DNA of 64,000 nucleotides from the IMG/VR virus record IMGVR_UViG_3300019776_000550, positions 27,499-91,498 of that record; one strand, written 5' to 3'. This document shows positions 5,790 to 23,933 of the stretch, in pieces (the first letter of the stretch is position 1; each line of letters starts with the position of its first letter). Source of the DNA: a virus. A model generated the notes under the pieces. It was not told the DNA's origin, did not search any database, and was given only the letters and a program-made list of their open reading frames with translations. The position numbers were made by a program, and so were the translations under genes.

Positions 5790-5882
5790 TTGTTTATTTG
5801 TTTTAATTGTTTAAAAGATAAATTAACAAAATAGCAACTCAACAAAGTCAAGTTGCTATCTGACAATTGAACTCTCTGAAAC

Positions 5883-7092: not shown

Positions 7093-7093
7093 A

Positions 7094-7285: not shown

Positions 7286-7479
7286 AATCTTGTTATAAAA
7301 TATCGCATTACGGTATGCAATTTACCTTTTTTAGTATCAATATCATAATTAGTTTCTTTGCCATGATAAGTATTAATAGTTCTTTTACCAACTATAACAC
7401 CTTCAACAGATTCAAGTTGACCTTTGTTTCCTTCAAAAACAGCGTCAACCATAACTTTTTGTCCTAGTTGTAGTTCCAT
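7282..7479 (-). CDS. hypothetical protein (SH3/KOW-like)
   Basis: ORF with LGQKVMV...GVIVG beta pattern. Confidence 0.55.
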   Translation of the reverse strand: MELQLGQKVMVDAVFEGNKGQLESVEGVIVGKRTINTYHGKETNYDIDTKKGKLHTVMRYFITRL

Positions 7480-7481
7480 TC

Positions 7482-7931: not shown

Positions 7932-8917
7932 AATAAGTGATGTTTATAATATTCAATTAAATCAGTAGTAGCATCTTTACCAAATTTACTTAAAAATTCA
8001 GTAAAATCTTTGCTTTCATCTTCGTTAAAGAGTAACGGAATTGTATTAAATTCTTGTTTATATTTAATTGATTGTCGTTTACCAGTCCAATCATTATCAA
8101 AAAGTGTAAATATCTGAACATCACCCATTAGCAACAATAAGGGAGGTATAACATCAGATGCTCTAATCTTTTCATTAATAATAAAACAAGAATTAATACC
8201 AAATAACCTTAAATAAAAGGCATCTTTTTTACTCTTTGTAATAACAACATACTCAAATTCAGTATTTAAAAATTCAAAATCACCATATTTAATACCAGTA
8301 GGATTAATAAACCTTCTTTGATGTTTGTCTTTCAAAGGTGAATAAATTTGATATTTAAAAAGGTCACTTTCATCAGGAAAATAATAAGCAAATGTACATT
8401 TAAGATTATCATAAAATCTTTGTTCATTGTTAACATACTCCCAATAACATTCAATACTAAAAATACTATTGTCTTGAAGTACTTTATACGAAACATCTAA
8501 TCCTCCAATATTCCAAAAATCTAAATCTCGTTTAGAAAAATGTTTTCTTTTAATTCTTAAACCATATTTAGCTTTTACAGAAAGTAATTCTTTTCTAGCT
8601 TCAACAACTTTAGTATTTTTAATTAAACCAAAATCATTAGCTATAATCTCAAGAGCTTTGATAAAAGAAACTCCATATTTTTGTTTGACAACATCAAAAC
8701 AGTCAAATTGTCGCCAAGCAAAATCATTGAATATCAATCTGTTATCTGTATCTCTGACATAAAAAGAACATTTAGGAAAACTATCTTCTCTAAGTATGTT
8801 TGTATAAAACTTATTGAGAGATACACTAGATATTTCAAGATACCTTTCAAAAATATCAATTTCAGATACTTTAGAAAGTATATACTCTTTAGTGATTTCA
8901 AATTGAATTAATTTCAT
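7928..8917 (-). CDS. DNA primase (DnaG/TOPRIM, crAss type)
   Basis: ILSKVSEIDIF, LRED..P.C, FNDF, VITKSKKD, LFDNDWTG, KDFTE; start set to MKLIQ. Confidence 0.88.
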   Translation of the reverse strand: MKLIQFEITKEYILSKVSEIDIFERYLEISSVSLNKFYTNILREDSFPKCSFYVRDTDNRLIFNDFAWRQFDCFDVVKQKYGVSFIKALEIIANDFGLIKNTKVVEARKELLSVKAKYGLRIKRKHFSKRDLDFWNIGGLDVSYKVLQDNSIFSIECYWEYVNNEQRFYDNLKCTFAYYFPDESDLFKYQIYSPLKDKHQRRFINPTGIKYGDFEFLNTEFEYVVITKSKKDAFYLRLFGINSCFIINEKIRASDVIPPLLLLMGDVQIFTLFDNDWTGKRQSIKYKQEFNTIPLLFNEDESKDFTEFLSKFGKDATTDLIEYYKHHLL

Positions 8918-9195
8918 TTTGATACATAATCTAAATACCACACATTACCTATAATCTCTAATTTATATTTACCTTCTATCACATTACATGTTGTAGGTAT
9001 CCTATAATTATATCTATTAGGTTCTGTTGGATAATTTATAAAATACTTACCTTTATCATTAACAGTTAAATACAACTGTTTTTCATTAACTATGTAATAA
9101 ACAAAGGGTAAATCAGGATTAAAAGATGCGTATAATCTGTAAACATGACCTCCACCATCTTTAATTATTCTTAGAAAAACTTCATTATCTTCCAT
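8914..9195 (-). CDS. hypothetical protein
   Basis: ORF. Confidence 0.6.
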   Translation of the reverse strand: MEDNEVFLRIIKDGGGHVYRLYASFNPDLPFVYYIVNEKQLYLTVNDKGKYFINYPTEPNRYNYRIPTTCNVIEGKYKLEIIGNVWYLDYVSK

Positions 9196-9201
9196 AGTAA
9201 T

Positions 9202-9235
9202 AAAAAAAAAGGTGTAGAATTAACTACACCTTTTT
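9202..9235. terminator. bidirectional-type terminator
   Basis: A9-GGTGTAG-loop-CTACACC-T5. Confidence 0.75.
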
Positions 9236-9247
9236 GGAGTAAGTAAA

Positions 9248-9874
9248 TTAAATTAAATTGGTATTTGTTCTAGCAGCAGGTCTTTCACCATCAGGACTTT
9301 TGTCAGGACGTGTAAGTCTATTATAAGAAGGGTCAAGAGGAGAAAGTTCTCTTGTTTTATATTTGCTGCTAATTACATTTCCATAAGCTGGAAAATCAAT
9401 ATATCCTGTTTTAACAGAATAACCAATCATAATTTGAAATTCCATTTCTAGCAAATCAGATGCATAAAGTTGTTCACAAACTTCAAGAAAATCTTTAGCT
9501 CCATTAACATCAATATCATCTAACTTCTTATAGTTAGCATCTGTCATAAAACAACCAAAAATATGCTTTAGACGACTAAAGTTACCATTAATCATGTTAG
9601 CATATTTTGCATCTTCACTTCTATCCTTGCGATTAGCTTGAAGAAGTTTAGCTCCCTTTTCATATCGACTCATGTCAAATTTAAAAGGGTCTAACATACC
9701 CGTATTAAACTCATTGCCATCAGCATCTCTAAATGAAAAATTAATTTTAGCATATGCGTTACCATTACTACTTACAGCTTCTGTATATTCAGGTAGTCCT
9801 GCTAGAAATACTGTAACACCTTTTTCATTTGGTTGAATAAGACCACCTTGACCTTGAATATCTCCTAATTTCAT
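9248..9874 (-). CDS. putative single-stranded DNA-binding protein
   Basis: Lies between AAA ATPase and primase; SSNGNAYAKINFSF OB-like strand. Confidence 0.45.
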   Translation of the reverse strand: MKLGDIQGQGGLIQPNEKGVTVFLAGLPEYTEAVSSNGNAYAKINFSFRDADGNEFNTGMLDPFKFDMSRYEKGAKLLQANRKDRSEDAKYANMINGNFSRLKHIFGCFMTDANYKKLDDIDVNGAKDFLEVCEQLYASDLLEMEFQIMIGYSVKTGYIDFPAYGNVISSKYKTRELSPLDPSYNRLTRPDKSPDGERPAARTNTNLI

Positions 9875-9930
9875 TTTTTTTGTTTGTTTATTTTTATTGA
9901 AAATTTAAAAAAATCGGACTAAAAGATAAT

Positions 9931-9963
9931 AAAAAAGCCCTAAATATTGCTATGAAGGGCTTT
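9931..9963 (-). terminator. rho-independent terminator
   Basis: AAAGCCCT/AGGGCTTT stem with U-run on minus strand. Confidence 0.6.
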
Positions 9964-10031
9964 CTTTATTTTAAGAAATGATTGTAGAGCCTACCTACTT
10001 TTGCGAGGCATTAAAATACTTTTACAAAAGA

Positions 10032-10556
10032 TTATGATTCCCAACTGTCTTCATCATCTTCTTCTGACTCATCATCAAAATCTTCTGCAACTTGAGCTTC
10101 TACAGTAGTAGATTTTTCAGGTTTACGAATTAGTTCAGCAGGAGTAACTTCCCACACACTAATAACACCATCTACTTCTTCATCTGTATTACGAGTAAGG
10201 TTAAAACCATGCTTATCATCTTGGATGTTCAACAAAGACTCAAGTTCTTTGTAAACAAACTCTTGTGATTTCTTAGCACCTTTTTTACCCTTCATAATTG
10301 CACCATCTGTATCAGAAGGTACAACAATAAGAAATACGTTACCCGATTCATTCACACCTGCTGTAAGAGCATAATTATTCAAACCCATATCAGAAAACTT
10401 CTGATTTGAAACTTTAAAAACAATTTTGCTATTACCCTTCTCATCAACACGCTTACTTGCAGTAAGGTCATTAGTACGAATAAGGTTCTTCATTGCAGCT
10501 TTACCAGCTTCTGTGAAAGTTCTTTCAATTTTCCGAGTTACGATTGTAATACCCAT
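10032..10556 (-). CDS. hypothetical protein with acidic C-terminal tail
   Basis: Ends EDFDDESEEDDEDSWES. Confidence 0.7.
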   Translation of the reverse strand: MGITIVTRKIERTFTEAGKAAMKNLIRTNDLTASKRVDEKGNSKIVFKVSNQKFSDMGLNNYALTAGVNESGNVFLIVVPSDTDGAIMKGKKGAKKSQEFVYKELESLLNIQDDKHGFNLTRNTDEEVDGVISVWEVTPAELIRKPEKSTTVEAQVAEDFDDESEEDDEDSWES

Positions 10557-10632
10557 TGTTTTAATTGTTTAATTGGTTTGTAATTGATTATAATGTAAAG
10601 GTACTCTATTTTTGGATATTCTCCAAATGTTT

Positions 10633-11352
10633 TTAAGATTTCTTGTAATAATTTTTAATGGTTTCAATAACTAAACCCATATCATTGGGTATTTCATAAT
10701 CTGCAAAGCAACCTAAAGGACTTTTTGCAGTATTGTAACCATCATTTTGTGTATCAAACCAGTAATTTACTTTCTTTGCTACTTTATCTAATCTACTATT
10801 AGAGTAAAGTACAAATGTAAACATACCTTCTATATTAAGATACTGGTCTGTTAACTTTCCCGCAGTTTTTACACGCTTAAATCCGTCATTATCTTTGTCA
10901 AAGTGATACATAAAGATAATGTTTAAGTCTTCACGTTTGCAACCTTGTGCAGCTCTAATAGGCAGATAAGCAGCTTGTCCAATTTCACTAAACTTATCGT
11001 AACCTTTTTCGAGTATTTTATCCATAAACATCAGCAACTGAATATAAACAGCATCATCAACTACAATGTTTTTGATACCTTTAAATTTATCATCATTATC
11101 AATAGCTTCGATAAGTGATTTAATTGCAAATGGGTCATGTGTTTTAAAATGTCTTCCTCCCTGACTTAGTAATTTACCTAATGGGTAAGAAGCTTCTGCA
11201 TTAGGAGTAGGTAATGGTTTTCCACTAACATTGATAAGAACTGTTTCATTTGGATTTAGTCCTTTAATTTCAATGTTTTTGTCTTTGTAGGGAAATATAG
11301 ATGTACTTTTACCAGTACCAGTATTTCCTACTACCGCAATAAGAGTTGCCAT
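10633..11352 (-). CDS. AAA-domain ATPase (AAA_24/Sak4-like)
   Basis: Walker A GNTGTGKS, IVVDDA, GYDKF, KTAGK, EG.FT.VL, TAKSP. Confidence 0.85.
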   Translation of the reverse strand: MATLIAVVGNTGTGKSTSIFPYKDKNIEIKGLNPNETVLINVSGKPLPTPNAEASYPLGKLLSQGGRHFKTHDPFAIKSLIEAIDNDDKFKGIKNIVVDDAVYIQLLMFMDKILEKGYDKFSEIGQAAYLPIRAAQGCKREDLNIIFMYHFDKDNDGFKRVKTAGKLTDQYLNIEGMFTFVLYSNSRLDKVAKKVNYWFDTQNDGYNTAKSPLGCFADYEIPNDMGLVIETIKNYYKKS

Positions 11353-11354
11353 AA

Positions 11355-12536
11355 TTAATCTTTAAAAGTTCCAAGTTTTATTCTGTTAACAACTTCAACA
11401 GGTTTTTCATCTTTGATAATACCTTTTTTAGTAAGGTATTTAACGTAATCTCTGTCAGTCTTAAATTCTTCAACTTTAGGTAATTCTTCAAATGTACCTG
11501 TAGCTCCATTAAATAACATACCAATTCTAAGATTAGGTGCTGAATATCTACTTTTAAGAAGCTTTACACTTCTATAAGTATCTTTTAAGATTTCAATATT
11601 GTAACCTCCTTTTGGATGTTCTTTAATTTCATATCTATCAGGTGCAAATATACCAATTACTTCTGTTGCATCCCTTGCTGTAAGTTTATTGTCACCAAGA
11701 CCATCTAAAGAAGGTTCTAGCTTGGCTTCAATACTCTTACCGCTAAAATCATGTTCAACTCTTTCTTTATCAGCTGCTTGTTGTTGTACAACAATAAGAT
11801 GAGCTTGATAATAATTTTTAAGAGTTAAACCATAGTCAGATGAAAACTTAGACATAGCTTGATGAAGTGTCATAGTTTGATTAGTAGACTTATTAGTTTC
11901 AGGTTGAGTTAAACTAATATGGTCAACTATAACTTCTATAAAAACATTATCATCATCGTATCTCCAGTACTTCATTTCAGTACCTTCTTCATCTAATTTA
12001 ACATCTTCACGCCCTTTTACAGTGTTAATAATAACATCTCTACATTTTTTATACATACCATAAGGATTTTTGATATTAGTATAAATCCTAACATGTTTAT
12101 TGAAGAAATCTACATAATCTTGATAAGATTTAAGATATTCAATAATCTTAGAATTTACTTTAACATCTTCACCTTCTCCGTGAATAGAGAGCAACTCTCT
12201 ATAAGATATATCAATGTTATAATCACGTTTAAGAAATGCACATAGAATATCAGCTAAATATTCTTCTGCTGATAATTCTAATGAAAATATGATTATAACA
12301 ACATTTATATCAGGATTATTTTTTACAAAATCTAATACATTAGAAACATAAAAAAATCTTGTAAACTTACTTTTACCTACACCACTAGATGCCGTAACAA
12401 TAGTATAACTACTTTTAACAACTCCAGGAACATATTTGCTGAATCGTTTAAATCCAACAGGTATAAAGTTAAATCCTCCATCTAAATGTCTTTGATAATT
12501 ATTTTCAATATTATTAATGAGTCTCTCAAATATCAT
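11355..12536 (-). CDS. DnaB-like replicative helicase
   Basis: ASSGVGKS, FSLEL, VIVDHI, VVQQQ, LKSR. Confidence 0.9.
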   Translation of the reverse strand: MIFERLINNIENNYQRHLDGGFNFIPVGFKRFSKYVPGVVKSSYTIVTASSGVGKSKFTRFFYVSNVLDFVKNNPDINVVIIIFSLELSAEEYLADILCAFLKRDYNIDISYRELLSIHGEGEDVKVNSKIIEYLKSYQDYVDFFNKHVRIYTNIKNPYGMYKKCRDVIINTVKGREDVKLDEEGTEMKYWRYDDDNVFIEVIVDHISLTQPETNKSTNQTMTLHQAMSKFSSDYGLTLKNYYQAHLIVVQQQAADKERVEHDFSGKSIEAKLEPSLDGLGDNKLTARDATEVIGIFAPDRYEIKEHPKGGYNIEILKDTYRSVKLLKSRYSAPNLRIGMLFNGATGTFEELPKVEEFKTDRDYVKYLTKKGIIKDEKPVEVVNRIKLGTFKD

Positions 12537-13176
12537 CGTTAAATATTTTTAACTCTGTTTTATGTTGGTCTTCATACATAGCAGCTATACCATCAAAAGC
12601 TTTAAAATAACCTTCAATGTTATAAGGTGCTGAATTTGAATTACAATCATCTAAATAAAGTTTTGTTATTTCCATGAATCTTGTAAAAAGAATATTATTA
12701 TTACCCTTTAGGATATTAACTCTAAACATCTCTACAAGTTCATCTTTACTGTGTTTACCCCAAACAGAATATTTCTTGGGTTTAGTAAGACCATTAATAT
12801 CTTTAATATGTACTTGTTTAGGATAAATAGCAATAAACTGTTCAAAAGCATCTTCAACATCTGTGATGTAAAAATATTGAAGAAATTTATCTGTTACTTT
12901 TAAGTTAGTCAGTTTAATGTTTTCATCATTTCCCCATATTTCAAGATATTCCTTTTGTTCAAGATTTTTACATATTTGAATCCAGTTTATATCATGTCTG
13001 TCTTGATATTTTTGAGACAATTGACCAAATTCAATTATGTTTATGTCTCGTGGTACTTTAAATAAATTATCGTCGTAATTATTTTGATTAATCATTACAC
13101 GATAAAGTAACCAGTATTCTTCTGCTGTAATACAAAGTTCATCTAAGAACTTTGCTAGTTTGAAAGGTTCTACCAT
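12526..13176 (-). CDS. putative replication initiator / helicase-loader (winged helix)
   Basis: Directly upstream of DnaB; FEQFIAIYP motif typical of phage replisome organisers. Confidence 0.5.
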   Translation of the reverse strand: MVEPFKLAKFLDELCITAEEYWLLYRVMINQNNYDDNLFKVPRDINIIEFGQLSQKYQDRHDINWIQICKNLEQKEYLEIWGNDENIKLTNLKVTDKFLQYFYITDVEDAFEQFIAIYPKQVHIKDINGLTKPKKYSVWGKHSKDELVEMFRVNILKGNNNILFTRFMEITKLYLDDCNSNSAPYNIEGYFKAFDGIAAMYEDQHKTELKIFNDDI

Positions 13177-13574
13177 TTAAGCATTTTTAAAAGTTTCATT
13201 TCTTCTTTATGAACATCAATAGCATCTGTAATTGTATAATTCTTTAAAGGATGTGTGCAACAAAATGTATAAGTTGTAGATTCAAGTTTATACTGAAATT
13301 TAATCAACCAGTTATCTACTCTTAATGCTGATAAATCCTTAATTAGTTTAACTCTTCTTTTCTTGCTAAGTCTGATTCTAGTATAAAGTCTTTTAAAACT
13401 ATCAGGTGACATAGCAATAGTTATATTTTTACAATTACAATCATTTACTAACCATATCATGTTGCCAATCTCAACGTTCTTTTTTATAAACTGAATAGCA
13501 ACTGTATATCGGTTTCTGTCTTCTATAAACTGTTCAAAATCTGTCTTGTTATTTAACTCGTTTACATCATTCAT
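13170..13574 (-). CDS. hypothetical protein
   Basis: ORF. Confidence 0.6.
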   Translation of the reverse strand: MNDVNELNNKTDFEQFIEDRNRYTVAIQFIKKNVEIGNMIWLVNDCNCKNITIAMSPDSFKRLYTRIRLSKKRRVKLIKDLSALRVDNWLIKFQYKLESTTYTFCCTHPLKNYTITDAIDVHKEEMKLLKMLKW

Positions 13575-14857
13575 ATCAGTTCTTTTAGTTCTTCTAAAGT
13601 GATTGTTTTAGTAAACTGTCCTTTTAAACTTGAAGCTAACCAAACCTTTTCTTGACTTAGTATGGTATCTGCACCAAGTTTAAAATCATCAATGAAGAAA
13701 TTAATCATAATAGGTGCTTTATCAGGATTGTCTTCATCAAATCTGATAATTCTACCTAATTGCTGAACAGCATCTAAATCATTAGATGTATAAGAAACTC
13801 TTAATCCAATTCTACAAGATTTAATATCAAAACCTTCTTTGAGAGAATCAATAGAAATTAAATGAGGTTTTTGATTAGAATAGAATTGATTTAGTACTTC
13901 TTCTTTACTCTTCTTTTTAAGTTTAGAATGATAAGAAATACTATTAGGGTTAGCATCTTCAAGCTGTTTAGCAAAATCGATAGTGCTACAAAATATAAGA
14001 GCTTTTTCTTTTACAACTGAAAGTAAATCAAGTGTAGCTAAATATTTAGATTGTGTATTTTGTAAAATCTGTTTTCTAACAGAAATAGCTTTTTGCCATT
14101 TCATAAGCATACCAAATACAGCACCTTCTTTTTGATTAAGCTGATTAGCAATACGTTCTCTTTCTTTTTTTGCATTAGGTGCAATTAAATTATAAGGAGA
14201 GTAATGTCCTACACCTGCAAAATAAGCACTATACTTTTTGTGTTCATTATGAGCATGAAGATAATCAGATTTTTCTCTAAGAGTTAGTTCAAGTGGCACA
14301 TTATAAATTTGTGTTGCTGGAACTAATCCTTTTTTAAATCCCCAATACAAACTAATTTGATATTTTTCAACTGATTTACCTTTTTTAACCATTTCTTGTC
14401 TAAGAAATGATTCATATTCAGGTTTCAAAGTAGCTGTAAGAAATAATGATTTTTTAAATACAGCATTTTGAATAGCTGTACTAAAATATTCACTACTTTT
14501 GTTCAATGCTCTATGTACTTCATCAATAATAAGTAAATCACATTGATTATTCTTATTATTCATCGTGTAAGAGTTTATTATAAAGATTTCTATTCTTACT
14601 AATGGGTAATCTTTATATAAATTCTTAGTAGCTTCTGTCCAAGATTCTTTTAGATGTTCTTTAGGTACAATAATATGTACATTAAGATAAGGATTGGCAG
14701 CAGCTTCTTTTGCTATCTTTTTTGTACCAATGTAAGTTTTTCCAAAACCTGTATATGCTTCACAAAGAAGATTATCAGATTCATTGTTAACAATATCATC
14801 TTGTACAAAATTCTTTAAATGGATTCCTTCAAGAGTTGATTCAGGAGGTCTAATCAT
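13571..14857 (-). CDS. superfamily 2 (DExH) helicase
   Basis: TGFGKT, IIDEVH, LTAT, EGFD, QQLGRIIR. Confidence 0.9.
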   Translation of the reverse strand: MIRPPESTLEGIHLKNFVQDDIVNNESDNLLCEAYTGFGKTYIGTKKIAKEAAANPYLNVHIIVPKEHLKESWTEATKNLYKDYPLVRIEIFIINSYTMNNKNNQCDLLIIDEVHRALNKSSEYFSTAIQNAVFKKSLFLTATLKPEYESFLRQEMVKKGKSVEKYQISLYWGFKKGLVPATQIYNVPLELTLREKSDYLHAHNEHKKYSAYFAGVGHYSPYNLIAPNAKKERERIANQLNQKEGAVFGMLMKWQKAISVRKQILQNTQSKYLATLDLLSVVKEKALIFCSTIDFAKQLEDANPNSISYHSKLKKKSKEEVLNQFYSNQKPHLISIDSLKEGFDIKSCRIGLRVSYTSNDLDAVQQLGRIIRFDEDNPDKAPIMINFFIDDFKLGADTILSQEKVWLASSLKGQFTKTITLEELKELI

Positions 14858-15065
14858 AAATTATATCATCAGTTATAATACGTTTCTTATGCTTACTTAC
14901 AACTTTTAATACAAGATAATCATGTGAATTATCTCTTGTAAATTCCTTTGCTTTTTCAGTAGCAATATTTCTATCAGTAGTTACTGTTTCTGAAATCAGT
15001 TGAGCAACTCCTTCTTTTTCTTTTGCTACATAATAAATTGATTTTTCAGGTTCGTTATTTGACAT
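14850..15065 (-). CDS. hypothetical protein
   Basis: ORF. Confidence 0.55.
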   Translation of the reverse strand: MSNNEPEKSIYYVAKEKEGVAQLISETVTTDRNIATEKAKEFTRDNSHDYLVLKVVSKHKKRIITDDIIYD

Positions 15066-15070
15066 ACATG

Positions 15071-17002
15071 TTAAAATAGTTTTAATTGATTTTTGTTAAC
15101 TTTTTTATTCTTACTTTTATAATCTTGTTCAATATCATCAATAAGCTTTTGAGCTTCTTGAATATAATATCTAAAATCTATATCAGTAGGAAAATCATCA
15201 GGTAATCTGTTAATTAATTCTACATTAAATCCTGAAACTATTTGAGATATTCTACCATCTTCAAATACTTTTTTAAGTTTCTTATAAGATTTAGCTACAT
15301 AAAATCTAACAGTTCTTGATACTTCTTCTTCTTGAATAGAAACACCGTTATAAACTTGAATAACAAGTTTATCTTTTTTGTTACAACGTTCTTTTAAACA
15401 AAACTTTTTAATATCATAACAAGTTGTTATAGTTTCTCTAATAGAAATATTGTTTACAAAATAGTTAATAGCTGCAATTACACTAATTTGATTGCTATAA
15501 TCTTTATGATAAGGGTCAGGTACTGAATCTGATTTTAAATCAGGTACATAAGCTCCTTTGTACTTATATTTATTTTCTTTAGTTATAGCAAAATAATTAT
15601 TTACATCTCTAATAAACATGGCTTTATAAAAAACTTCTTCTAATTCCATGTTAAAAAAAGATTCCCATTGATTACATATCTTTCTAAAATTGTCAATTTG
15701 ATTATTATTAACATAAACGGTAATACCATCTGTATTAGCTTGTATAATTTGACAATCTTCTATTTCTGATATATCTTCTAATAACTTTAATAATCTAAGT
15801 TGACCATTAATAGTTACTTTAAATGTACACGCAATATCATACAAAAAACTATACTTATCCTTAAATTTGCCATAAACACTATTAAGTGCTTTTTTATAAG
15901 TATCAGATTGAATTTTAGCATTTTTATCACTTTTAATAAGTGATTTATTTTGCTTTCTCCAAGTAACTTGTGATTTAGCAACTTTAAGAAAAGATTCTTT
16001 ATTAAGATGTTCAGGCACTGCTTCTAAATCTATATAAAGTGAAGGATATAGTGATGCTACATCTACATCAATTATACTATGAGTAGAAGACTCTTTGAAA
16101 ACACCTTTTAAAGAACCATGAATACCACCTTTTTTAACATCTAATTTAAGTTCTTTAATATATACATCAAATGCAACTTTATTTTCAATGCTATCTTTAT
16201 TATCATTGCTATTATAAATAACAACTTTTTTAAGTTCGTGTTGAAGTTCTTTTAAATGATTTTGTTTAAAGTTGATATGTTGTATTATATCTTTTAAATT
16301 AACAAAATCTCTATTAGTTCTTCTTTGTAGAACTTCTTGTGGGTTCTCATTTGTTTCTTTACAATAATAATATAAAAAAAGATGTTCTCCTAACTTAGAA
16401 TCTGACCAATTAATACAATCTAAATTTGTATTTTGTTTGATATTTTGTCTAAGTCTTATGTTATCAACCATTTTTAAGAAAAACTGATAAGTAGCTTGAA
16501 CATCATTAAGATTGTATTCAAGTATTTTATTTTGTTCTTCTATCTTTGTAATTGTAGAAGTATAATGATAAGGCATATCTTCTACATTAGGCAATTCTAA
16601 AGCAACTTCTAATTGTTTTAAAGAAGTTCTTCTTGCTGGATTATCAAAATGAGCTATACTAAATACATCAATCTGACTAAATATAGGATTTCTAATCCTA
16701 TTGAATTTAGGAGTTTCGGTATTTACAAGTCTTTGACTTTCTTTATATAACAAATCATTCATTTCTTCTAATGGGAGATTACCAACTATATTGAAAAGAT
16801 AATCTAAAAGTGGATAATCATAGTTTAAGTTATTAAAACCTATACCTATTATACCACTATTTACAAAATCTTTATATTCTTGATAATCATTATTAAATAT
16901 AGATAAGGTGAAGCTTTTAACTTCACCTGTATCTATATCTAACCACGTTGAACAATGAAAATTTTTAAATTGCTCAATATCATATACCCAAATATTTCTC
17001 AT
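15071..17002 (-). CDS. polB: DNA polymerase family B with 3'-5' exonuclease
   Basis: YDIE, GFNNLNYD, YNLNDV exonuclease motifs; DVASLYPS, KKALNSVYGK, NTDG polymerase motifs. Confidence 0.93.
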   Translation of the reverse strand: MRNIWVYDIEQFKNFHCSTWLDIDTGEVKSFTLSIFNNDYQEYKDFVNSGIIGIGFNNLNYDYPLLDYLFNIVGNLPLEEMNDLLYKESQRLVNTETPKFNRIRNPIFSQIDVFSIAHFDNPARRTSLKQLEVALELPNVEDMPYHYTSTITKIEEQNKILEYNLNDVQATYQFFLKMVDNIRLRQNIKQNTNLDCINWSDSKLGEHLFLYYYCKETNENPQEVLQRRTNRDFVNLKDIIQHINFKQNHLKELQHELKKVVIYNSNDNKDSIENKVAFDVYIKELKLDVKKGGIHGSLKGVFKESSTHSIIDVDVASLYPSLYIDLEAVPEHLNKESFLKVAKSQVTWRKQNKSLIKSDKNAKIQSDTYKKALNSVYGKFKDKYSFLYDIACTFKVTINGQLRLLKLLEDISEIEDCQIIQANTDGITVYVNNNQIDNFRKICNQWESFFNMELEEVFYKAMFIRDVNNYFAITKENKYKYKGAYVPDLKSDSVPDPYHKDYSNQISVIAAINYFVNNISIRETITTCYDIKKFCLKERCNKKDKLVIQVYNGVSIQEEEVSRTVRFYVAKSYKKLKKVFEDGRISQIVSGFNVELINRLPDDFPTDIDFRYYIQEAQKLIDDIEQDYKSKNKKVNKNQLKLF

Positions 17003-17004
17003 AA

Positions 17005-17301
17005 TTACTGATTTAGTGATTGATAAACTTCAAACACTCCAAGTTTTTCTAATAAAACTCGTAAAGGTTCTCCACCAAAAGAAAATCGTGTATGATTCCA
17101 TGATATTTCTAATGATTCATGTTCGTCGAGATGTACAACAAAATAATTAGATTTATTAAGAATTATACTATTTACAGTATATTCTTTATTTTCTATTATA
17201 GGTAATTCTCCTGATGCTATAATCATAGAAATTATATCATCAGGAATACCTTTATCATTTGTACAAACTACTTTTAATTCACTACTAGGCTTAATTATCA
17301 T
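17005..17301 (-). CDS. hypothetical protein
   Basis: ORF. Confidence 0.6.
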   Translation of the reverse strand: MIIKPSSELKVVCTNDKGIPDDIISMIIASGELPIIENKEYTVNSIILNKSNYFVVHLDEHESLEISWNHTRFSFGGEPLRVLLEKLGVFEVYQSLNQ

Positions 17302-17470
17302 CTAAATCCTTTTTGACACCTATGATAATTAAAACTAATACTGTTCCATAGATTAAACCATGTATTACAGCTAATGTTGGATTATGCTGAATAGCATAAA
17401 TTGTATCTGTAATCCATAAAAACAGCACTAGTGTTAATGCTGCCAAGAATAAGCTCATAATAGTTTTCAT
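17291..17470 (-). CDS. small two-TM membrane protein (59 aa)
   Basis: Own translation MKTIMSLFLAALTLVLFLWIT...GLIYGTVLVLIIIGVKKDLDDN*. Confidence 0.55.
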   Translation of the reverse strand: MKTIMSLFLAALTLVLFLWITDTIYAIQHNPTLAVIHGLIYGTVLVLIIIGVKKDLDDN

Positions 17471-17521
17471 TATTAAAATTATTATTGGTTACTGATTAAT
17501 TAACTGCTGTAATTTAACAAT

Positions 17522-17547
17522 AAAAAGGGAGTTTTTCAACTCCCTTT
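17522..17547 (-). terminator. rho-independent terminator
   Basis: AAAGGGAGTT/AACTCCCTTT directly after the 17555 gene. Confidence 0.75.
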
Positions 17548-17554
17548 GATTTAA

Positions 17555-18388
17555 TTATGCGTTGATTTCTGTTAACATACCAAGATTACGAACTGCATAT
17601 TGGTTTTGTAACCACTCTTGAAATTCAGCATTAAACAATGCACCTTGTTTTACTGCAACAGGAACACTATCAGCAGGGATAACATCATCATGCTTAAATT
17701 CAGCATTATTTTTCAATTCATTTGCTCTAAAACCTGCTAAAGACGCTTGTATGTCAGTAGTAGGTCTTACTACTAATGTAGTAAATTGAAAAATGAGTTT
17801 ATTATTTAATAACAAAACATCACCTCCTTTACCACTACGCTTGGGTTCAAGTGTAATCAAACCTGTTGTGGTAAGCTGTGGCATTTGAAGAGTTGTTGTG
17901 TTATTACGAACAATATACGTAACAAAATTCTTCTTTACTAAACTTTCACTAAAGTTAAATCCATCTTTAATACCATTAGCTTCACAAAAAGCCAATGTTG
18001 TAGTTTGCCAAAAATACTTTTGGCGACTTGAATTTGACACTCTACCCATTAGGAAATAACCTAACAGACTAGAACTGTCTTCAATTTCATCACTTGATTC
18101 AACATTTTGAGTAAACTCAAGTTGAAACGTAAGTGCATTAATACATGTAATACGTTTTTCTTCTTTTGAAGAATTTACAAATGCAGCATTAGGTTCTGCA
18201 TTAAATATTTGTTTATATACAAAACCAAGTTCTTCATGGCTTTTATCAATAAACAAAGCATTTTTACTGGCTTTGATTTCTTCATAAGAAGTCATTCCAG
18301 TAGCTGCAATAGTAGGTTTTGTTATTTTAACTTTGTTAACAATAACTGGATTTGTGATTTCGAACGGATTTGAAATTTCAGTTGACAT
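17555..18388 (-). CDS. hypothetical protein
   Basis: 277-aa ORF with its own terminator. Confidence 0.8.
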   Translation of the reverse strand: MSTEISNPFEITNPVIVNKVKITKPTIAATGMTSYEEIKASKNALFIDKSHEELGFVYKQIFNAEPNAAFVNSSKEEKRITCINALTFQLEFTQNVESSDEIEDSSSLLGYFLMGRVSNSSRQKYFWQTTTLAFCEANGIKDGFNFSESLVKKNFVTYIVRNNTTTLQMPQLTTTGLITLEPKRSGKGGDVLLLNNKLIFQFTTLVVRPTTDIQASLAGFRANELKNNAEFKHDDVIPADSVPVAVKQGALFNAEFQEWLQNQYAVRNLGMLTEINA

Positions 18389-18441
18389 AGTTTGATTTAT
18401 TTAAGTTGGTTTGAAAAAAAAAAAAAAAAAAATATAAGATG

Positions 18442-18696
18442 TTAATATACTACATTGTTCAATCTCAATGATTTAAGATTTTGTTTCTTAATCCATTGTG
18501 AATTATTGAGAACAGATAAAATCTGTTTACGTGCGTCATAATATGACTTAGCATGTACAGATATGACAAATTCATATCTAGTATTTCCAAACTGTTTATC
18601 TTTACTTTCTGTTTCTCTACCTGTATAACTACAAGTATTTACTTTAGAAATTGAAATTTGTTTACCAAATAAATCTACAATACCCGTGTATATCAT
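18442..18696 (-). CDS. hypothetical protein
   Basis: ORF. Confidence 0.6.
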   Translation of the reverse strand: MIYTGIVDLFGKQISISKVNTCSYTGRETESKDKQFGNTRYEFVISVHAKSYYDARKQILSVLNNSQWIKKQNLKSLRLNNVVY

Positions 18697-18929
18697 AATT
18701 TAAAATAATTGTTTTCAATTTCTTTTTCATATTCAACATGTTCAATAGCTTGTTCTATGTTATGAGGACATGTACTTTGTACTCTTTGATTGTTTCTCAC
18801 AATCATTTTAAGAGTATTACGTAGATGATTGATGTCCATAGCATCAATATCTACATATTTTCCATCTTTAGTTCTCCAATATACTTTTTCCATTGTCATA
18901 AATTTTTTAAAAAGGAAGTGATTTTTCAC
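18693..18929 (-). CDS. hypothetical protein (W.TKDG...I..M...HL.N family)
   Basis: Recurrent small phage motif WRTKDGKYVDIDAMDINHLRN; true start probably downstream of 18929. Confidence 0.6.
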   Translation of the reverse strand: MKNHFLFKKFMTMEKVYWRTKDGKYVDIDAMDINHLRNTLKMIVRNNQRVQSTCPHNIEQAIEHVEYEKEIENNYFKL

Positions 18930-18944
18930 TTCCTTTTGTTTGAT

Positions 18945-19289
18945 TTACATCAACCACTTATTTGCATTTTGTTGATGGTATTCAACCATCAAGTTAGCTT
19001 TTTGTGGATTCAAATAAATCCACATTTGCTTCGCCGTTTTGTACTCATCGTACACTTTCTTTGCATTTATGCAAGTAAATTCGTACATGTCAATAACATG
19101 TACAACTTGCTCTACGTTTTCTCCTCCTGCTGCTTTAGGAAGAGTGAAGTAGAATACCATTTCTCCTATACAAGCGGCAATTTGAAAATTGCCCTTGCAG
19201 AAAATCTTTCCTGTTGGAAATACAGCGGTGAAATTTAATTCACCATTTCCAAACGTCTTTGTGATTTTAATTCCGTTAATGTTATTCAT
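18945..19289 (-). CDS. hypothetical protein
   Basis: ORF. Confidence 0.6.
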   Translation of the reverse strand: MNNINGIKITKTFGNGELNFTAVFPTGKIFCKGNFQIAACIGEMVFYFTLPKAAGGENVEQVVHVIDMYEFTCINAKKVYDEYKTAKQMWIYLNPQKANLMVEYHQQNANKWLM

Positions 19290-19479
19290 GTTCTTCTATG
19301 TTTAGTGATGTTAAAAATGAAACCATACCCACGATACATAAGTTGTATGTGGCAAAAAATAATTTAACATAAGAGACATGAATGTCTATTACATTAAAAA
19401 ATAAATATTCTGCTAATATCAATAACACATATATAAAAAGTGTCATTAATATTATAAAAATTAATCTTGTTATTTTCAT
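19282..19479 (-). CDS. small membrane protein
   Basis: Two hydrophobic segments; poly-A leader. Confidence 0.6.
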   Translation of the reverse strand: MKITRLIFIILMTLFIYVLLILAEYLFFNVIDIHVSYVKLFFATYNLCIVGMVSFLTSLNIEEHE

Positions 19480-19502
19480 TTTTTTTTTGTGATTAAAATA
19501 AA

Positions 19503-19535
19503 ATATTCCTATTCAGTAAAACTAAATAGGAATAT
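19503..19535 (-). terminator. hairpin / terminator
   Basis: ATATTCCTATT/AATAGGAATAT. Confidence 0.55.
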
Positions 19536-19552
19536 AATCATTTGTCCATCAT

Positions 19553-19768
19553 TTATCTGAAATATACGAAAATGTCGTCGTATATTTCAGATACAACCAC
19601 TACTGCTCCAATAAGAGCAAACATTAGACCGCCACCTATTAAATAGGCGACTGACATTATTACTTCATGGTAATTAATGTCAAATATAAGACTGATAAAG
19701 GCTGCAGGAATTACGAATAGAATAGACCATACAGCTACAAATCCAATAAGACAAATTAATGCTTTCAT
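19553..19768 (-). CDS. small two-TM membrane protein
   Basis: Two hydrophobic helices; A14 leader. Confidence 0.65.
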   Translation of the reverse strand: MKALICLIGFVAVWSILFVIPAAFISLIFDINYHEVIMSVAYLIGGGLMFALIGAVVVVSEIYDDIFVYFR

Positions 19769-19800
19769 TTTATTTTTTTTTTTTTTAAGGTTTATGTTCT

Positions 19801-19871
19801 TTTTTCTTCACTCTGCTTTTTACAAGGACTTGTGACCTTCTATATTAAATATAGGTAGCATTAAAGAAAAA
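19801..19871 (-). ncRNA. twister self-cleaving ribozyme (type P1)
   Basis: Minus RNA UUUUUCUU-UAA-UGCU-ACC-UAUAUUUAAUAUAG-AAGG-UCAC-AAG-U-CCUU-GUAAAA-AGCA-GA-GUG-AAGAAAAA. P1 (8 bp), P2, P3, P4 and both pseudoknots (CAC/GUG; AC/GU) align with the twister consensus. Predicted cut U19863/A19862. Confidence 0.92.
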
Positions 19872-19897
19872 GCATCTATTCTCCCAACAGATGCTTT
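19869..19897 (-). terminator. terminator-like hairpin overlapping twister P1
   Basis: AAAGCAUCUGUU-GGGAG-AAUAGAUGCUUU followed by UUCUUU. Confidence 0.55.
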
Positions 19898-19908
19898 GAA
19901 TAGTTGTG

Positions 19909-20049
19909 CTACACTTTTACACAACTAAGAATCAAGGAACTTTCATCCTTAATAATAGAAATAGCTTCCATAACAGAAGAAGCTTCAATTTCCATATTAA
20001 GAACAATAATTCCTGTTCTCAGACGGTAACTTACTAAATACTTGTTCAT
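19909..20049 (-). CDS. small hypothetical protein (46 aa)
   Basis: Own translation MNKYLVSYRLRTGIIVLNMEIEASSVMEAISII... Confidence 0.55.
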   Translation of the reverse strand: MNKYLVSYRLRTGIIVLNMEIEASSVMEAISIIKDESSLILSCVKV

Positions 20050-20082
20050 AGTATTAGGTTTAAATGTAAGAAAATAGAATTA

Positions 20083-20253
20083 CTATTGAATTTTAATAAT
20101 TCCGTCATAATCTACGGAATATATCAAAAATCTTTTATCTCTTATCTCTCTCCAGATAGAAGCATTTTTCAGAGTTTTTAATCTTTCTAACGCATCTTCT
20201 AATGATTCAAACCATATATATTCATAGTCTGAATTAAATATAAAGTATTCCAT
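20083..20253 (-). CDS. small hypothetical protein (56 aa)
   Basis: Own translation MEYFIFNSDYEYIWFESLEDALERLK... Confidence 0.55.
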   Translation of the reverse strand: MEYFIFNSDYEYIWFESLEDALERLKTLKNASIWREIRDKRFLIYSVDYDGIIKIQ

Positions 20254-20326
20254 AATAAACAATTAAAAATGAATAAAACAGAATTGTGACAGTTTCTAAG
20301 ATAACTGACAAAACTTATTGTTTGCA

Positions 20327-20548
20327 TTACAATATTGTAACACCTGTTAAAACTCTTGAAGTTGTATTATTTACAACTTCATAAAATTCCCAAACCATGT
20401 CTCCATTGTTATAATTAAACATAGAGACATAAATAGAATTAGAATCATAACATTCTAATTCTATAAATTCTTTCCATGCTTTTTCCAAACCATTTTCATG
20501 GTTTGTATGAGTTGGGAAAAATTCAATAAATTTCAATTCTTTCAACAT
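20327..20548 (-). CDS. hypothetical protein
   Basis: ORF. Confidence 0.6.
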   Translation of the reverse strand: MLKELKFIEFFPTHTNHENGLEKAWKEFIELECYDSNSIYVSMFNYNNGDMVWEFYEVVNNTTSRVLTGVTIL

Positions 20549-20742
20549 AAATCTTCTATTTTTAAATCTAAAACTGGAAGTTCTTTTACTATTTTGTAAT
20601 AATAACTTTCTGAGTCATCAGTAGGTTGATTATTAACAAAATTCTGAACTTTTTCTAAGTCTTTTTCTTGTATCTTACCTAGTAAGATATTTTCATCACA
20701 GTGTCCTTTACCGTGATAATAATATTTGAATAAATACATCAT
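20542..20742 (-). CDS. hypothetical protein
   Basis: ORF with poly-A leader. Confidence 0.6.
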   Translation of the reverse strand: MMYLFKYYYHGKGHCDENILLGKIQEKDLEKVQNFVNNQPTDDSESYYYKIVKELPVLDLKIEDLC

Positions 20743-20781
20743 TTTTTTTTTTTTGATTTAATTACACAGCTTAAAATAAAA

Positions 20782-21650
20782 TAATTACAATTGTATGATT
20801 TAATGCAAGTAGTTTGATTAACTTCTCGGAACTAACTTTCATAAGAATTTCTTCTTATAACCAGTACATCCTTTGCACATACAATTGTAATTAATTGTTT
20901 TTAAATGTTCGGTTGTGTCTGTTTTGTATATCACAACTTTATCTTACACATCTATTGAGAAACCTCCAATGTCTCAAATGTTTTTCAATGTGTAAACCAG
21001 ATGCTTTACTTCAAACATTTCAAAGCTTCAATGGAGTTTGTAAGCTTTGAATAACAATGACCTTTTAACTTACATGATTTTCTCATGTAAAACTTTTATA
21101 AAAGTAGTTTCAAGATTTATTTAGACACGTTTATCTCATCATCAGATTGTTTTCGTGTATATTTTAATTCAAAACTTAATAATAAAACAACAACTCTAGG
21201 TGTACATATCATAGGTAGTGAGCCTATGTACATATTTTTCACAGTTGAGCGTTGTTGCTTTATTATCTACTTCTAATAACATCAGTTGTCTTTTGTTATT
21301 AGATTCACCTTCTGTTCACTCTAAGCAAGTACGTGTTATTGTATTAACACAATGCGATATGAGCATAAACAGTTTTCATCTCCTTATTTAAGGGAAACTA
21401 GGTTAGTCAAAAAAAAAAGAAGTAGTTTATTCTTTCAGATGTCTTTTAAAAAGACGGAAAGATGGACACAGCTGACATTGTAAGCAGTCCTACTTCTTTT
21501 ACGTAATCCTACCATCATGTCACTAGGTAGGTTTCCCACTCAACCTTCTATCATTATGATAGCTAACCCTTGTGAAGTTAGAATGAGGTTTTAAGAATCG
21601 TTAGTTTTATTCTGTTGCCAAGAAAAACTAACAAAAAACTCCGAATCTTA
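20782..21650 (-). ncRNA. ORF-free tract of tandem structured RNA elements
   Basis: At least nine consecutive stem-loop or junction modules; G-U pairs favour the minus strand. Confidence 0.65.
21049..21158 (-). ncRNA. type I hammerhead ribozyme (variant core)
   Basis: Minus: stem I AACAAU/AUUGUU; CUGAUGA (21145-21139) plus extra U; stem II GAGAU/AUCUU; GAAAC; long stem III; GUC (21061-21059); ACACG/CGUGU pseudoknot. Confidence 0.7.
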
Positions 21651-21651
21651 T

Positions 21652-22002
21652 TCAGTCGCAGAGTTCAGACCTAACACAACCTGAATGTGCAAATGGAAAT
21701 CCATCATACATTCCACCTCCGCAATGACTACAAGTAGTCTCTGCAAAAGTGTCATGGATTTTTTCCATTGCTTCATTGGTTGCTGGTTCAGACATCAACT
21801 CTAGCAATACTTTCCTTAAATCATAAGGATTATGGACTTTGTAAGTATTATGCTCACAATCCATAGCGTATGCAGAGTCAATATTCTCATGCGTTATGTT
21901 TATACACTTATTATTGTAATAAGCTGATAAGCAATAAACATGAGGTAGTCTGTGACCATTAAAGTCTAAACCAAACTGCTCTACAAGGACTAATTCTGTC
22001 AT
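21652..22002 (-). CDS. hypothetical protein with C-terminal Zn-finger-like CxxC...HxxC
   Basis: Track ORF 21652..22041; start MTELV after A-rich leader; CSHC...HSGC. Confidence 0.65.
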   Translation of the reverse strand: MTELVLVEQFGLDFNGHRLPHVYCLSAYYNNKCINITHENIDSAYAMDCEHNTYKVHNPYDLRKVLLELMSEPATNEAMEKIHDTFAETTCSHCGGGMYDGFPFAHSGCVRSELCD

Positions 22003-22144
22003 TGTTTTACAATTTAATTTAAAAAGTTTTTCTACTAACATAACTTCTAGTAGATAAAGTGATACTAATTACCTGTTGATTCTCAAGATGTATCAAGTCT
22101 TGATTCCTTATACTCAGTTAGCAGGTTCTGAGTTTAGGATTGAG

Positions 22145-22510
22145 TTACAGAGTAACCACTTTCTCTCTCAAATTACGAGAGACATGGTTTCTCAATGTCT
22201 GCAAATCTGCCTGTTCTTTACAGACAAACTCTCCATTTGCTTCTCTAACAAGAGTAGCAATAATAGGAAAGTTCCCTGTAAGTCCATGCAGTGCTACTAA
22301 TACCATAGTAGCTAATGCAGACATTCCTGGAACTGCTACCGTAACAACAGTATTACTTTCAACCCCTAAAGATTGAAGATACTTTGTTACAGCTTCCAAA
22401 TTTTCCCCAAATGGTTTTTCAGGGTTAATTTGAACAGTTCCATGAAACTCAAATCCTAATTCATCAAGACTCTTGTTAAAGTGTCCTGACAAGTTAAGTT
22501 TCTTGTTCAT
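22145..22510 (-). CDS. Csx15-like protein (CARF-related, type III CRISPR-associated family)
   Basis: LNLSGH...INPEKPF.E...PGMSALA..VL..LHG.TG.FP.I..L.R...DLQ.LR...R..R matches the Csx15 pattern over the full length. Confidence 0.75.
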   Translation of the reverse strand: MNKKLNLSGHFNKSLDELGFEFHGTVQINPEKPFGENLEAVTKYLQSLGVESNTVVTVAVPGMSALATMVLVALHGLTGNFPIIATLVREANGEFVCKEQADLQTLRNHVSRNLREKVVTL

Positions 22511-22683
22511 TTTTAAGGAACGTAGGAAACTAATGTGTTCTATTCTAAGTAAGAACACTTAACTTGCAACCACTAAAGTAGGTTACTTTCACTTTGTAGC
22601 ATATTTAAAAATCTGGAGGTAATGCTACTTAACCTCACTGTTAGCTTTTTATATAAAAAAGCTAAAAAAACAAAAACAAAAAG

Positions 22684-22710
22684 AAAAAAAAGCTAGGATT
22701 AACCTAGCTT
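22684..22710 (-). terminator. rho-independent terminator of first early gene
   Basis: AAGCTAGG/CCTAGCTT overlapping the stop codon, followed by a U-run. Confidence 0.7.
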
Positions 22711-22929
22711 GAATTTCTGGATGATAGCGTCTAACACGCTATCAGCAACACCGTAACCATTTGCGTATTCAATAACACTGACTTCTGCATCAGTGAATTT
22801 CTCCGCGATACATATTAACGTTTGCGAAGCTTTTGACAGCTTCTCGTAAATTTCGTCGGTGACTTCCACACCTTTTCTGCCCGATACCTTTCTATCGGTA
22901 TCTTTAACATCTAACTTTATCTGAGCCAT
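22699..22929 (-). CDS. hypothetical protein, first gene of leftward unit
   Basis: ORF with A-rich leader and its own terminator. Confidence 0.7.
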   Translation of the reverse strand: MAQIKLDVKDTDRKVSGRKGVEVTDEIYEKLSKASQTLICIAEKFTDAEVSVIEYANGYGVADSVLDAIIQKFKLG

Positions 22930-23317
22930 TTTCTTTTTTGTTTAAAGTTTATTGGGGGTACAACCCCTCGCAATTTCAGTAGGGGGTGGCTAAGGTAAGT
23001 AGTTCCTCAATCAGCAAATTTCCACAACTTCTATTAAAATTATGATGTCTTCATTCAGCAAATCTTTTTGTAGCACTATAATCAGCTAGGGGGGTCTTTT
23101 AGTATATTAATCCAAAGTACCTTCTTTTGTAGTAGGGATATTAGGTATATCATGTTCAGCAAGTGTATTTTTAATGTCAATTCTATTGTTCTAATGGGGG
23201 TTATTCAGTAGGTTTTTGCTGTTTTTGGCTGTTTTCATTTTAAAATAGTTTTTTTAAGTATATGGAAAACGGTCATTTTAAGCTACTTTTAGAGTTAACT
23301 GCCTGATTATCAATCAG

Positions 23318-23362
23318 TTTACTATGTCAAAATTATAATTTTACTATGTCAATATTTTGACA
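23318..23362 (+). repeat. 13-bp direct repeat plus palindrome
   Basis: TTTACTATGTCAA at 23318 and 23340; TGTCAA-TATT-TTGACA at 23347-23362. Confidence 0.75.
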
Positions 23363-23372
23363 GTTTTTTCGC

Positions 23373-23380
23373 TATATTTG
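23373..23380 (+). promoter_or_regulatory. Bacteroidota -7 promoter box
   Basis: TATATTTG matches TAnnTTTG, 19 nt before the ATG at 23400; no well-spaced -33 box. Confidence 0.45.
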
Positions 23381-23399
23381 TACAAATCATTTGATAAAA

Positions 23400-23933
23400 A
23401 TGAAGATAAAAGAAGTAATAAAAATCAATAAAGTAGCTGTAAAAGTAAGAGATGTAGATATAGGTGTTAATCCTTTCATGAAAGATGTAAATATTAAAGT
23501 ATCTGTAGTAAATTTAGAAGGTGATTATGTTAAAGAGGATGATTTATACTTACCAAATAACACTTATATTGAATCAGAACCTTATACAAAGATTTTTATA
23601 AATGCTGAAAACAGAAAAATTGTTAATAAATTAACACAACGAGGTAAAGATTTGCTATTATGGTTGCTTTATGAGATGGAAGCTGGTCAAGATTTTATTA
23701 AAATTAATAAAGTTAGATATATGAAAGAATTAAGTATCAAATCTGTTAATACTTATAAAACAGCTTTATCAGAATTAATAAGATATGGTATGTTAAAGGA
23801 GTCAAAAGCAAAAGATATATACTGGATTAATTCACAATTCTTTTTTAATGGTAATAGAATCAAGAAATATAAAAAACAACTGATAAATAAAGATGGCAAT
23901 AGAATTAATAATAAAGAGAAAGGCGTTTCCTGA
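23400..23933 (+). CDS. RepL-like winged-helix replication/regulatory protein
   Basis: LLLWLLY...SVNTYKTALSELIRYGML...IYWINSQFFFNGNRI, the C-terminal motif of RepL-like proteins. Confidence 0.75.
   Translation: MKIKEVIKINKVAVKVRDVDIGVNPFMKDVNIKVSVVNLEGDYVKEDDLYLPNNTYIESEPYTKIFINAENRKIVNKLTQRGKDLLLWLLYEMEAGQDFIKINKVRYMKELSIKSVNTYKTALSELIRYGMLKESKAKDIYWINSQFFFNGNRIKKYKKQLINKDGNRINNKEKGVS

Follow-up and report, generated by a model that had tools for sequence, protein, structure and literature searches.

Whether an infected cell dies or survives type III CRISPR signalling depends on ring nucleases and sponges, whose viral versions are natural anti-CRISPRs. The locus studied here raises the question of whether a small phage gene, which a reading of the sequence alone had taken for an orphan csx15, encodes a true member of that family, and what such a protein would do for its phage. 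The gene lies in a 64,000-nt stretch of DNA, hereafter the window, which makes up bases 27499-91498 of the 91,498-bp IMG/VR record IMGVR_UViG_3300019776_000550.

Among 28,114 genomes of cultured phages, Hoikkala et al. (2024) detected no Csx15, and they left the function of the protein open; in January 2026 Csx15 was reported to be absent from phage genomes. Chi et al. (January 2026; 10.64898/2026.01.21.700848) described a head-to-tail stacking of Csx15 induced by cyclic tetra-adenylate (cA4). In their work both PfCsx15 and CliCsx15 were specific for cA4; PfCsx15 acted as a sponge without ring-nuclease activity, while CliCsx15 cleaved cA4 slowly and neutralised cA4-dependent immunity in vivo. 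A broad-specificity, filament-dependent cleavage that includes the trinucleotides of CBASS was reported by Klimavicius et al. (bioRxiv, 28 Oct 2026; 10.64898/2026.10.26.761840), with CsCsx15 and HaCsx15 cleaving cA3-cA6, 3'3'3'-cAAG and 2'3'3'-cAAA in vitro. The same authors listed viral Csx15 proteins (vCsx15), namely that of the Lokiarchaeota virus Skoll (URC17498) and more than 20 sequences from IMG/VR and env_nr, and proposed the name AcrIII-3 for them. By then Csx15 was described as rare in viruses and "predominantly restricted to prophage regions"; none of the viral proteins, according to the preprint, had been tested. Both 2026 preprints hold that Csx15 turns over too slowly to suit viruses well. 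The idea of a phage Csx15 as an anti-CRISPR is thus already in print, under a proposed name for which we found no use in other papers, and the present gene opens no new category. New here are an intact csx15 copy, carried by a complete and lytic-looking freshwater phage of the crAss/FpV4-like kind, the strong purifying selection acting on it, and a distinct clade whose members of known context are all found on phage contigs.

The phage gene encodes a Csx15-family protein

The gene is an ATG-to-TAA open reading frame (ORF) on the minus strand (Table 1), and the ORF map and its translation bore out the 121-aa protein first read from it, here designated P0001. A longer reading from a GTG at 22558 was rejected, as the starts of the homologues disagree with it: all eight close homologues open with the same Met-x-x-K-L-N-L-S-G-H, and the upstream start is therefore unsupported. 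Two plus-strand ORFs that overlap csx15 (22076-22300 and 22140-22376) are antisense to a gene under strong purifying selection and were accordingly taken as chance frames.

Table 1. Coordinates in the window of csx15, its functional codons and the surrounding features.
Feature	Position	Strand	Basis
csx15-like CDS, P0001, 121 aa + stop	22145..22510	-	ORF, NCBIfam Csx15, hhalign 99.8%, dN/dS
S8-G9-H10 codons, "head" Ser/His motif	22481..22489	-	aligned to 9TET_A S16-G17-H18
H75 codon in LHGLTGxFP motif, central His	22286..22288	-	aligned to 9TET_A H89, 9TEU_A H97
R107, R112, R115 codons, "tail" arginines	22166..22192	-	alignments with canonical Csx15
Divergent intergenic region, strand switch	22930..23399		ORF maps; GC skew changes sign
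76-aa ORF, first leftward after strand switch	22699..22929	-	no family match
129-aa Cys/His-rich ORF directly downstream of csx15	21652..22041	-	no family match
Terminator-like hairpin, end of 76-aa ORF	22690..22710	-	8 pairs, 4 G-C, then T-run TTTTTTCTTT
Sigma-70-like hexamers TTGCAA, 16-nt spacer, TAGAAT, 32 nt upstream of start	22542..22569	-	consensus scan

The search with Csx15 profiles proposed in the sequence-only reading was carried out. The equivalog model NF040560 (CAS_Csx15) of NCBIfam matched P0001 with 48.1 bits (E 1.2e-12), above its curated cut-off of 35, and the PADLOC Csx15 model also matched (E 7.6e-8). Pfam-A gave no family for P0001 at E up to 10, and PHROGs gave no match. 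All 31 aligned members of the clade to which P0001 belongs matched NF040560, as did all the canonical template sequences (E down to 2.4e-33). The similarity had been described as running from end to end. By sequence comparison this is nearly right: a profile of 31 relatives aligned with the canonical Csx15 profile over query columns 1-115 (hhalign, 99.8%, E 7.8e-28), whereas the single local alignment with NF040560 spans residues 25-109 only.

A profile of P0001 and its eight close homologues was also compared with the sequences of the PDB, and found 9TET_A (E 4.3e-6, query 5-102) and 9TEU_A (E 1e-3, query 17-114). When the numbering was checked against Chi et al., residues H18, H89 and F113 of 9TET_A were found to be H11, H82 and F106 of PfCsx15 plus 7, and H97 and Y120 of 9TEU_A to be H90 and Y113 of CliCsx15 plus 7. 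Because this offset fits, 9TET is PfCsx15 (an orphan protein and in vitro sponge) and 9TEU is CliCsx15 (a slow ring nuclease, linked to type III-A). Judged from these profiles and from the alignments described below, P0001 is a member of the Csx15 family with its functional residues intact.

The carrier phage and its probable host

The IMG/VR record has direct terminal repeats, its first 50 bases recurring at its end, and is rated 100% complete. It codes for a large terminase (TerL), a portal, a major capsid protein, tail proteins, a DNA polymerase and a helicase. The terminase is ~30% identical to those of the Flavobacterium phages FpV4 and FPSV, and also matches those of Bacteroides crAss-like phages and Cellulophaga phages. 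This is a crAss/FpV4-like freshwater phage that looks virulent. Two giant ORFs of 3953 and 2027 aa (genome positions 3784-21745, upstream of the window) are reminiscent of the very large virion proteins that crAss-like phages make.

Start codons between window positions 17000 and 27000 lack Shine-Dalgarno sequences and have A-rich leaders, often with a run of A8-A13 directly before the ATG; a T20 run was seen upstream of the ORF at 17555-18388. Such leaders, like crAss-like kinship, are typical of Bacteroidota. Together with the kinship of the terminase and the low GC content (26-35%), they indicate that the host is probably a freshwater member of this phylum.

Neither of the Cas10 models TIGR02577 and TIGR02578 found a match in the whole 91.5-kb genome or in four related phage records. 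No 18-mer is present three or more times in the genome, which argues that it holds no CRISPR array. The claim that cas genes and an array are lacking, originally made for the window, therefore held over the whole genome for the Cas10 models and the repeat scan. The association with Cas10 and type III systems that is usual for Csx15 was found neither in this genome nor in 20 related loci, as would be expected for an orphan viral copy. P0001 resembles the vCsx15/AcrIII-3 proteins in being a stand-alone viral metagenomic homologue of Csx15, and by this resemblance has the same candidate anti-CRISPR role; unlike those described from prophage regions, its gene belongs to a complete crAss/FpV4-like genome with terminal redundancy, and the phage contigs that carry its relatives measure 58-216 kb.

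Functional residues and a proposed mode of action

The residues on which Csx15 depends are known from mutagenesis. They comprise a head histidine (H8 in HaCsx15 and CsCsx15, H11 in PfCsx15, with S9 beside it, and H13 in CliCsx15; Klimavicius et al.; Chi et al.), a central histidine (PfCsx15 H82, CliCsx15 H90; Chi et al.) and, in HaCsx15, the tail arginines R118 (binding), R125 (catalysis) and, between them, R122 (Klimavicius et al.). Mutating these residues abolishes binding, filament formation or cleavage in HaCsx15, PfCsx15 and CliCsx15 (Klimavicius et al.; Chi et al.). As seen in the alignments, P0001 has a counterpart of each: H10 corresponds to the head histidine, H75 to the central one, in a motif that reads LHGLTGNFP, and R107, R112 and R115 to HaCsx15 R118, R122 and R125. 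In addition, F95 lies at the position of CliCsx15 Y113, a residue that the published model places beside an adenine (Chi et al.).

Conservation was assessed in the alignment of 31 relatives, which has a mean column identity of 41%. Four columns (N6, H10, G79 and R107) are invariant, H10 being present in 31 of the 31 members, and those conserved to at least 90% include G9, H75, F81, P82, F95, R112 and R115. The conservation of H10, H75 and the arginines argues that both surfaces of the composite site are maintained. A subclade found in loci L007, L008, L011 and L050 (phage contigs of 58-130 kb) reads N-F-S-H-P-N in place of N-L-S-G-H-x-N; the glycine is deleted and the histidine is kept.

In common with the cellular proteins (Ha, Cs, Cli and PfCsx15), P0001 has the N-L-S-G-H and LHGxxGxFP motifs and the C-terminal arginine triad. 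Its predicted fold appears to be of their Rossmannoid type, with a β-hairpin before the last helix. It differs from them in several details. At 121 aa it is shorter than the cellular proteins (125-146 aa), since it lacks the insert that follows the first helix and precedes the second strand; "HFN" follows Ser-Gly where the canonical sequence has "HPL"; Asn replaces the second His of LHGxxGHFP; and one extra residue stands between the first two tail arginines. The resulting +5/+3 spacing is shared by its nearest kin, while the canonical proteins and several other members of the clade, P0010 for example, have +4/+3.

With the functional residues intact and a complete phage genome without type III genes, counter-defence against cyclic-oligoadenylate (cOA) signalling is the best reading of this gene, and on balance we think that P0001 would be a stand-alone viral Csx15 that binds cA4-type signals, and cuts or holds them, against type III CRISPR. 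By homology, its dimers would stack head to tail around cyclic tetra-adenylate, and possibly around related cyclic oligonucleotides. The composite site for the ligand would be formed by H10 (with S8) of one dimer and H75, R107, R112 and R115 of the next, and the stacks would retain the signal or cleave it to linear products. Expressed during infection, the protein would thus lower the amount of the second messenger that Cas10 produces and that activates CARF and SAVED effectors, so that the cA4-activated effectors of the Bacteroidota host stay off. In this scheme oligomerisation, ligand binding, catalysis, the timing of expression and the host system targeted are all inferred.

A protein acting in this way would be analogous to AcrIII-1 (DUF1874/Crn2) and AcrIII-2 (PDB 9R8S), in that it would remove cA4 and thereby disable the effectors of type III systems. 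The AcrIII-1 enzyme is fast and dimeric and has an enclosed site; P0001 belongs to another family, as had been proposed, having neither a DUF1874 match nor any other in Pfam. With AcrIII-2, a viral SAVED ring nuclease, P0001 would by homology share the head-to-tail assembly and the composite His/Arg site, but AcrIII-2 has a duplicated (pseudo-dimeric) domain of about 235 aa.

One alternative is that P0001 is a non-catalytic sponge, which would sequester cA4 in stacked dimers without cutting it, as PfCsx15 does. The family profile is nearer to PfCsx15 (9TET, E 4e-6) than to the enzyme CliCsx15 (9TEU, E 1e-3), and sponges are a known strategy of phages against CBASS and Thoeris. Moreover, the Ser/His, central His and Arg residues are all shared by PfCsx15, which is still a sponge only (Chi et al.), and for that reason the sequence cannot decide between cutting and sequestering. 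On the other hand, it has been argued in print that the large cOA output of type III systems makes sponging alone a poor strategy, and the catalytic pair of HaCsx15, H8 and R125, has its counterparts in H10 and R115 of P0001, which are conserved across the clade. Cutting seems somewhat more likely than pure sponging, and we regard the sponge as a possible but doubtful account of the protein. Being short and easy to synthesise, P0001 would lend itself to a first experimental test of a viral Csx15, in which cutting could be set against sequestering.

Predicted fold and the possible signal

An AlphaFold2 (AF2) model of P0001, built from the 31-sequence alignment, was predicted with a pLDDT of 95.7 and a pTM of 0.86. 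It consists of alternating strands and helices, with the β-hairpin (residues 83-89 and 95-102) before the last helix. Foldseek found no significant match to this model in the PDB or BFVD; the viral SAVED protein AcrIII-2 was among its weak matches, at rank 13. With an exhaustive structure aligner the best rank was taken by Csa3 bound to cA4 (Z 6.4), followed by VC1899/Card1 and Can2 (both Z 5.5); the MID domains of the Argonautes AGO5 and QDE-2 (Z 5.4), and TIR-SAVED and Cap5 (both Z 5.3), matched as well. No Csx15 structure was among the matches listed in either PDB-based fold search. These middling scores (Z under 8) agree with, without proving, the CARF/SAVED-like Rossmannoid fold reported for Csx15.

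The predicted fold is as close to SAVED as to CARF domains, and this bears on a second alternative, namely that the main target of P0001 is CBASS or another cyclic-oligonucleotide defence, with 3'3'3'-cAAG or cA3-like cyclic trinucleotides as ligands. CsCsx15 and HaCsx15 cleave CBASS signals in vitro, and a broad-spectrum use by viruses was raised by the authors of that work (Klimavicius et al.). They also found, however, that the association of cellular Csx15 with Cas10 is far stronger than that with CBASS cyclases, PfCsx15 and CliCsx15 are specific for cA4, and the present genome holds no pointers to CBASS. We therefore consider it improbable that CBASS would be the main target of P0001; a protein directed primarily against type III signalling might perhaps also blunt CBASS.

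Selection, relatives and spread of the gene

The csx15 gene is under strong purifying selection, with dN/dS values of 0.03-0.15. Compared with the orthologue in a 136-kb phage contig it has 20 nucleotide differences and two amino acid changes (dN/dS 0.028); against the orthologue in a 129-kb contig, where dS is near saturation, the value is 0.145. Between two phages P0001 is conserved at 98% identity, against only 61-88% for the genes flanking it. A DNA run of another freshwater study contained the gene at about 97% identity, and runs with a third or more of the sampled words of the region came from at least eight studies of freshwater, aquatic and drinking-water samples. The small size of the ORF and its lack of a Pfam or PHROG match might have been those of a chance ORF or of a decaying gene without function, but that explanation is effectively refuted by the selection on the gene and by its conservation: besides the two dN/dS values and the nearly identical copy from the other freshwater study, there are 46 related cluster representatives with conserved motifs, and the model has a pLDDT above 95.

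A word-indexed search found the eight close homologues only; with an exhaustive profile search, 128 cluster representatives were obtained (E up to 1e-3). In a maximum-likelihood tree, 117 single-domain sequences fell into a set of 46 rows and a set of 71 (SH-aLRT 100). The former contains P0001 and eight of the nine other proteins that come from viral or large phage-like contigs, and the latter consists of longer, canonical-like sequences. Since the tree is unrooted and built on few columns, it shows a distinct group and no direction of transfer. Its separate clade and its phage location without cas genes thus further distinguish P0001 from cellular Csx15.

Each member of this short-Csx15 clade whose context is known lies on a phage contig. 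Nine contigs of IMG/VR, 11-216 kb in length, carry relatives, and four of the five records checked are 92-100% complete. The JGI metagenomes held 42 further loci with relatives, mostly on short contigs. Look-ups of 20 cluster representatives led to metagenome proteins and to one protein of a Hydrogenedentota metagenome-assembled genome, which falls outside the clade. A two-motif pattern scan of 185,579 species genomes found no relative from the clade, although this is a narrow test and suggestive at most, and nothing was found among 50,697 GenBank phage records by megablast of the surrounding 10 kb or by tblastn of P0001.

Proteins with more than one Csx15-like stretch were also observed (P0033, P0030, P0041, P0051, P0058 and P0079). 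One, of 1460 aa, has seven such stretches and several, of 315-351 aa, have two; the latter may be duplicated-Csx15 (SAVED-like) forms (10.64898/2026.10.26.761840).

The surroundings of the relatives were varied. Among 98 neighbour proteins from 20 related loci, a ribonucleotide reductase, a tRNA nucleotidyltransferase, replication initiators and a DnaD-like loader could be recognised, together with exonucleases, HNH and GIY-YIG endonucleases and a TnpB; none of the 98 belonged to a cas family, and no defence or anti-defence families were found beside the csx15-like genes of the other loci. Six related contigs had, besides csx15, no detectable genes near it in common with the window, and the csx15 loci examined span 27-51% GC. 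Both observations argue that csx15 moves between unrelated phages, a mobility typical of accessory counter-defence genes. In four loci (L016, L025, L028 and L029) an ORF of ~262 aa follows the csx15-like gene, and in L016, L028 and L029 an ORF of ~288 aa comes next. The two ORFs of L029 have no Pfam match, and are followed by genes for a tRNA nucleotidyltransferase and a ribonucleotide reductase.

The neighbourhoods also bear on the notion that P0001 is a nucleotide-binding protein for the biology of the phage itself, timing its development or excluding rival phages, with no role in anti-defence. Non-CRISPR roles may exist, as about 25% of cellular Csx15 genes occur in genomes without type III CRISPR (Hoikkala et al., 2024), and Csx15 domains also serve as sensors in fused effectors such as Cash. 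Here, however, a fused or conserved adjacent effector is absent, the neighbours of csx15 differ between phages, and a stand-alone ligand-binding module without an output domain fits depletion of a signal better than sensing. A role of this kind is in our view very unlikely, and the depletion of cA4-type signals is the reading that we retain.

A bolder extension of that reading is that the clade of 46 representatives is a phage-only lineage, which has spread between unrelated virulent phages and been tuned into an efficient, perhaps broad-spectrum, destroyer of type III and CBASS signals. We offer this as a speculation that is unlikely to hold in full; if true, it would refute the published opinion that Csx15 turns over too slowly to be of much use to viruses.

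Locus and transcription signals

The strand switch (Table 1) has leftward small ORFs and replication genes on one side and, on the other, rightward genes that lead to the packaging and virion genes. The statement that csx15 comes second in the leftward unit holds as to position: it is the second leftward ORF from the switch, and heads a block of small ORFs without family matches that runs into the replication genes. The hairpin at 22710-22690 and an A/T-rich spacer of 188 nt nevertheless set it off from the first ORF. Taken with the sigma-70-like site, these features suggest that csx15 may be a separate transcription unit. Sigma-70-like sites are no commoner in the region than in shuffled sequences, and their consensus would hardly be one used by a Bacteroidota host or by a phage RNA polymerase. 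The ORF downstream of csx15 has a C-terminal CSHCGGG...HSGC stretch and is 88% identical in the related 136-kb phage.

Counted from the strand switch, csx15 comes third or fourth among the ORFs of two related crAss-like contigs; each of the three related crAss-like phages has it within about 2 kb of the switch, heading a block of small ORFs. An early expression of the gene, as first suggested, is plausible from this position only. Contigs from RNA libraries (three runs) covered only short conserved intergenic pieces and left the csx15 gene without coverage. Three segments near the gene (22060-22135, 21345-21597 and 22941-23227) recur in contigs of two metatranscriptome runs, at a depth of up to 48, with unlike sequence on either side. 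These flanking segments look like conserved intergenic elements of related phages that have other genes in the csx15 slot.

Folding of the two flanks of the gene was no better than that of shuffled sequences (z -0.18 for the 3' flank, 22040-22150, and z -0.59 for the 5' flank, 22505-22705). A search of the whole window with Rfam at gathering thresholds found nothing. A hammerhead ribozyme at 21047-21172 on the minus strand was considered as well; Rfam gave no match to it at gathering thresholds in the window or at E up to 1 in 19500-23500. Below threshold, a full-length match to the twister-P1 family of Rfam (RF03160) was seen at 19805-19867 on the minus strand, with 58.9 bits (E 6.5e-12) against a gathering score of 67.2. 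This twister-P1-like site shares its strand with csx15 and lies within the block of small ORFs, some 2.3 kb downstream of the gene.
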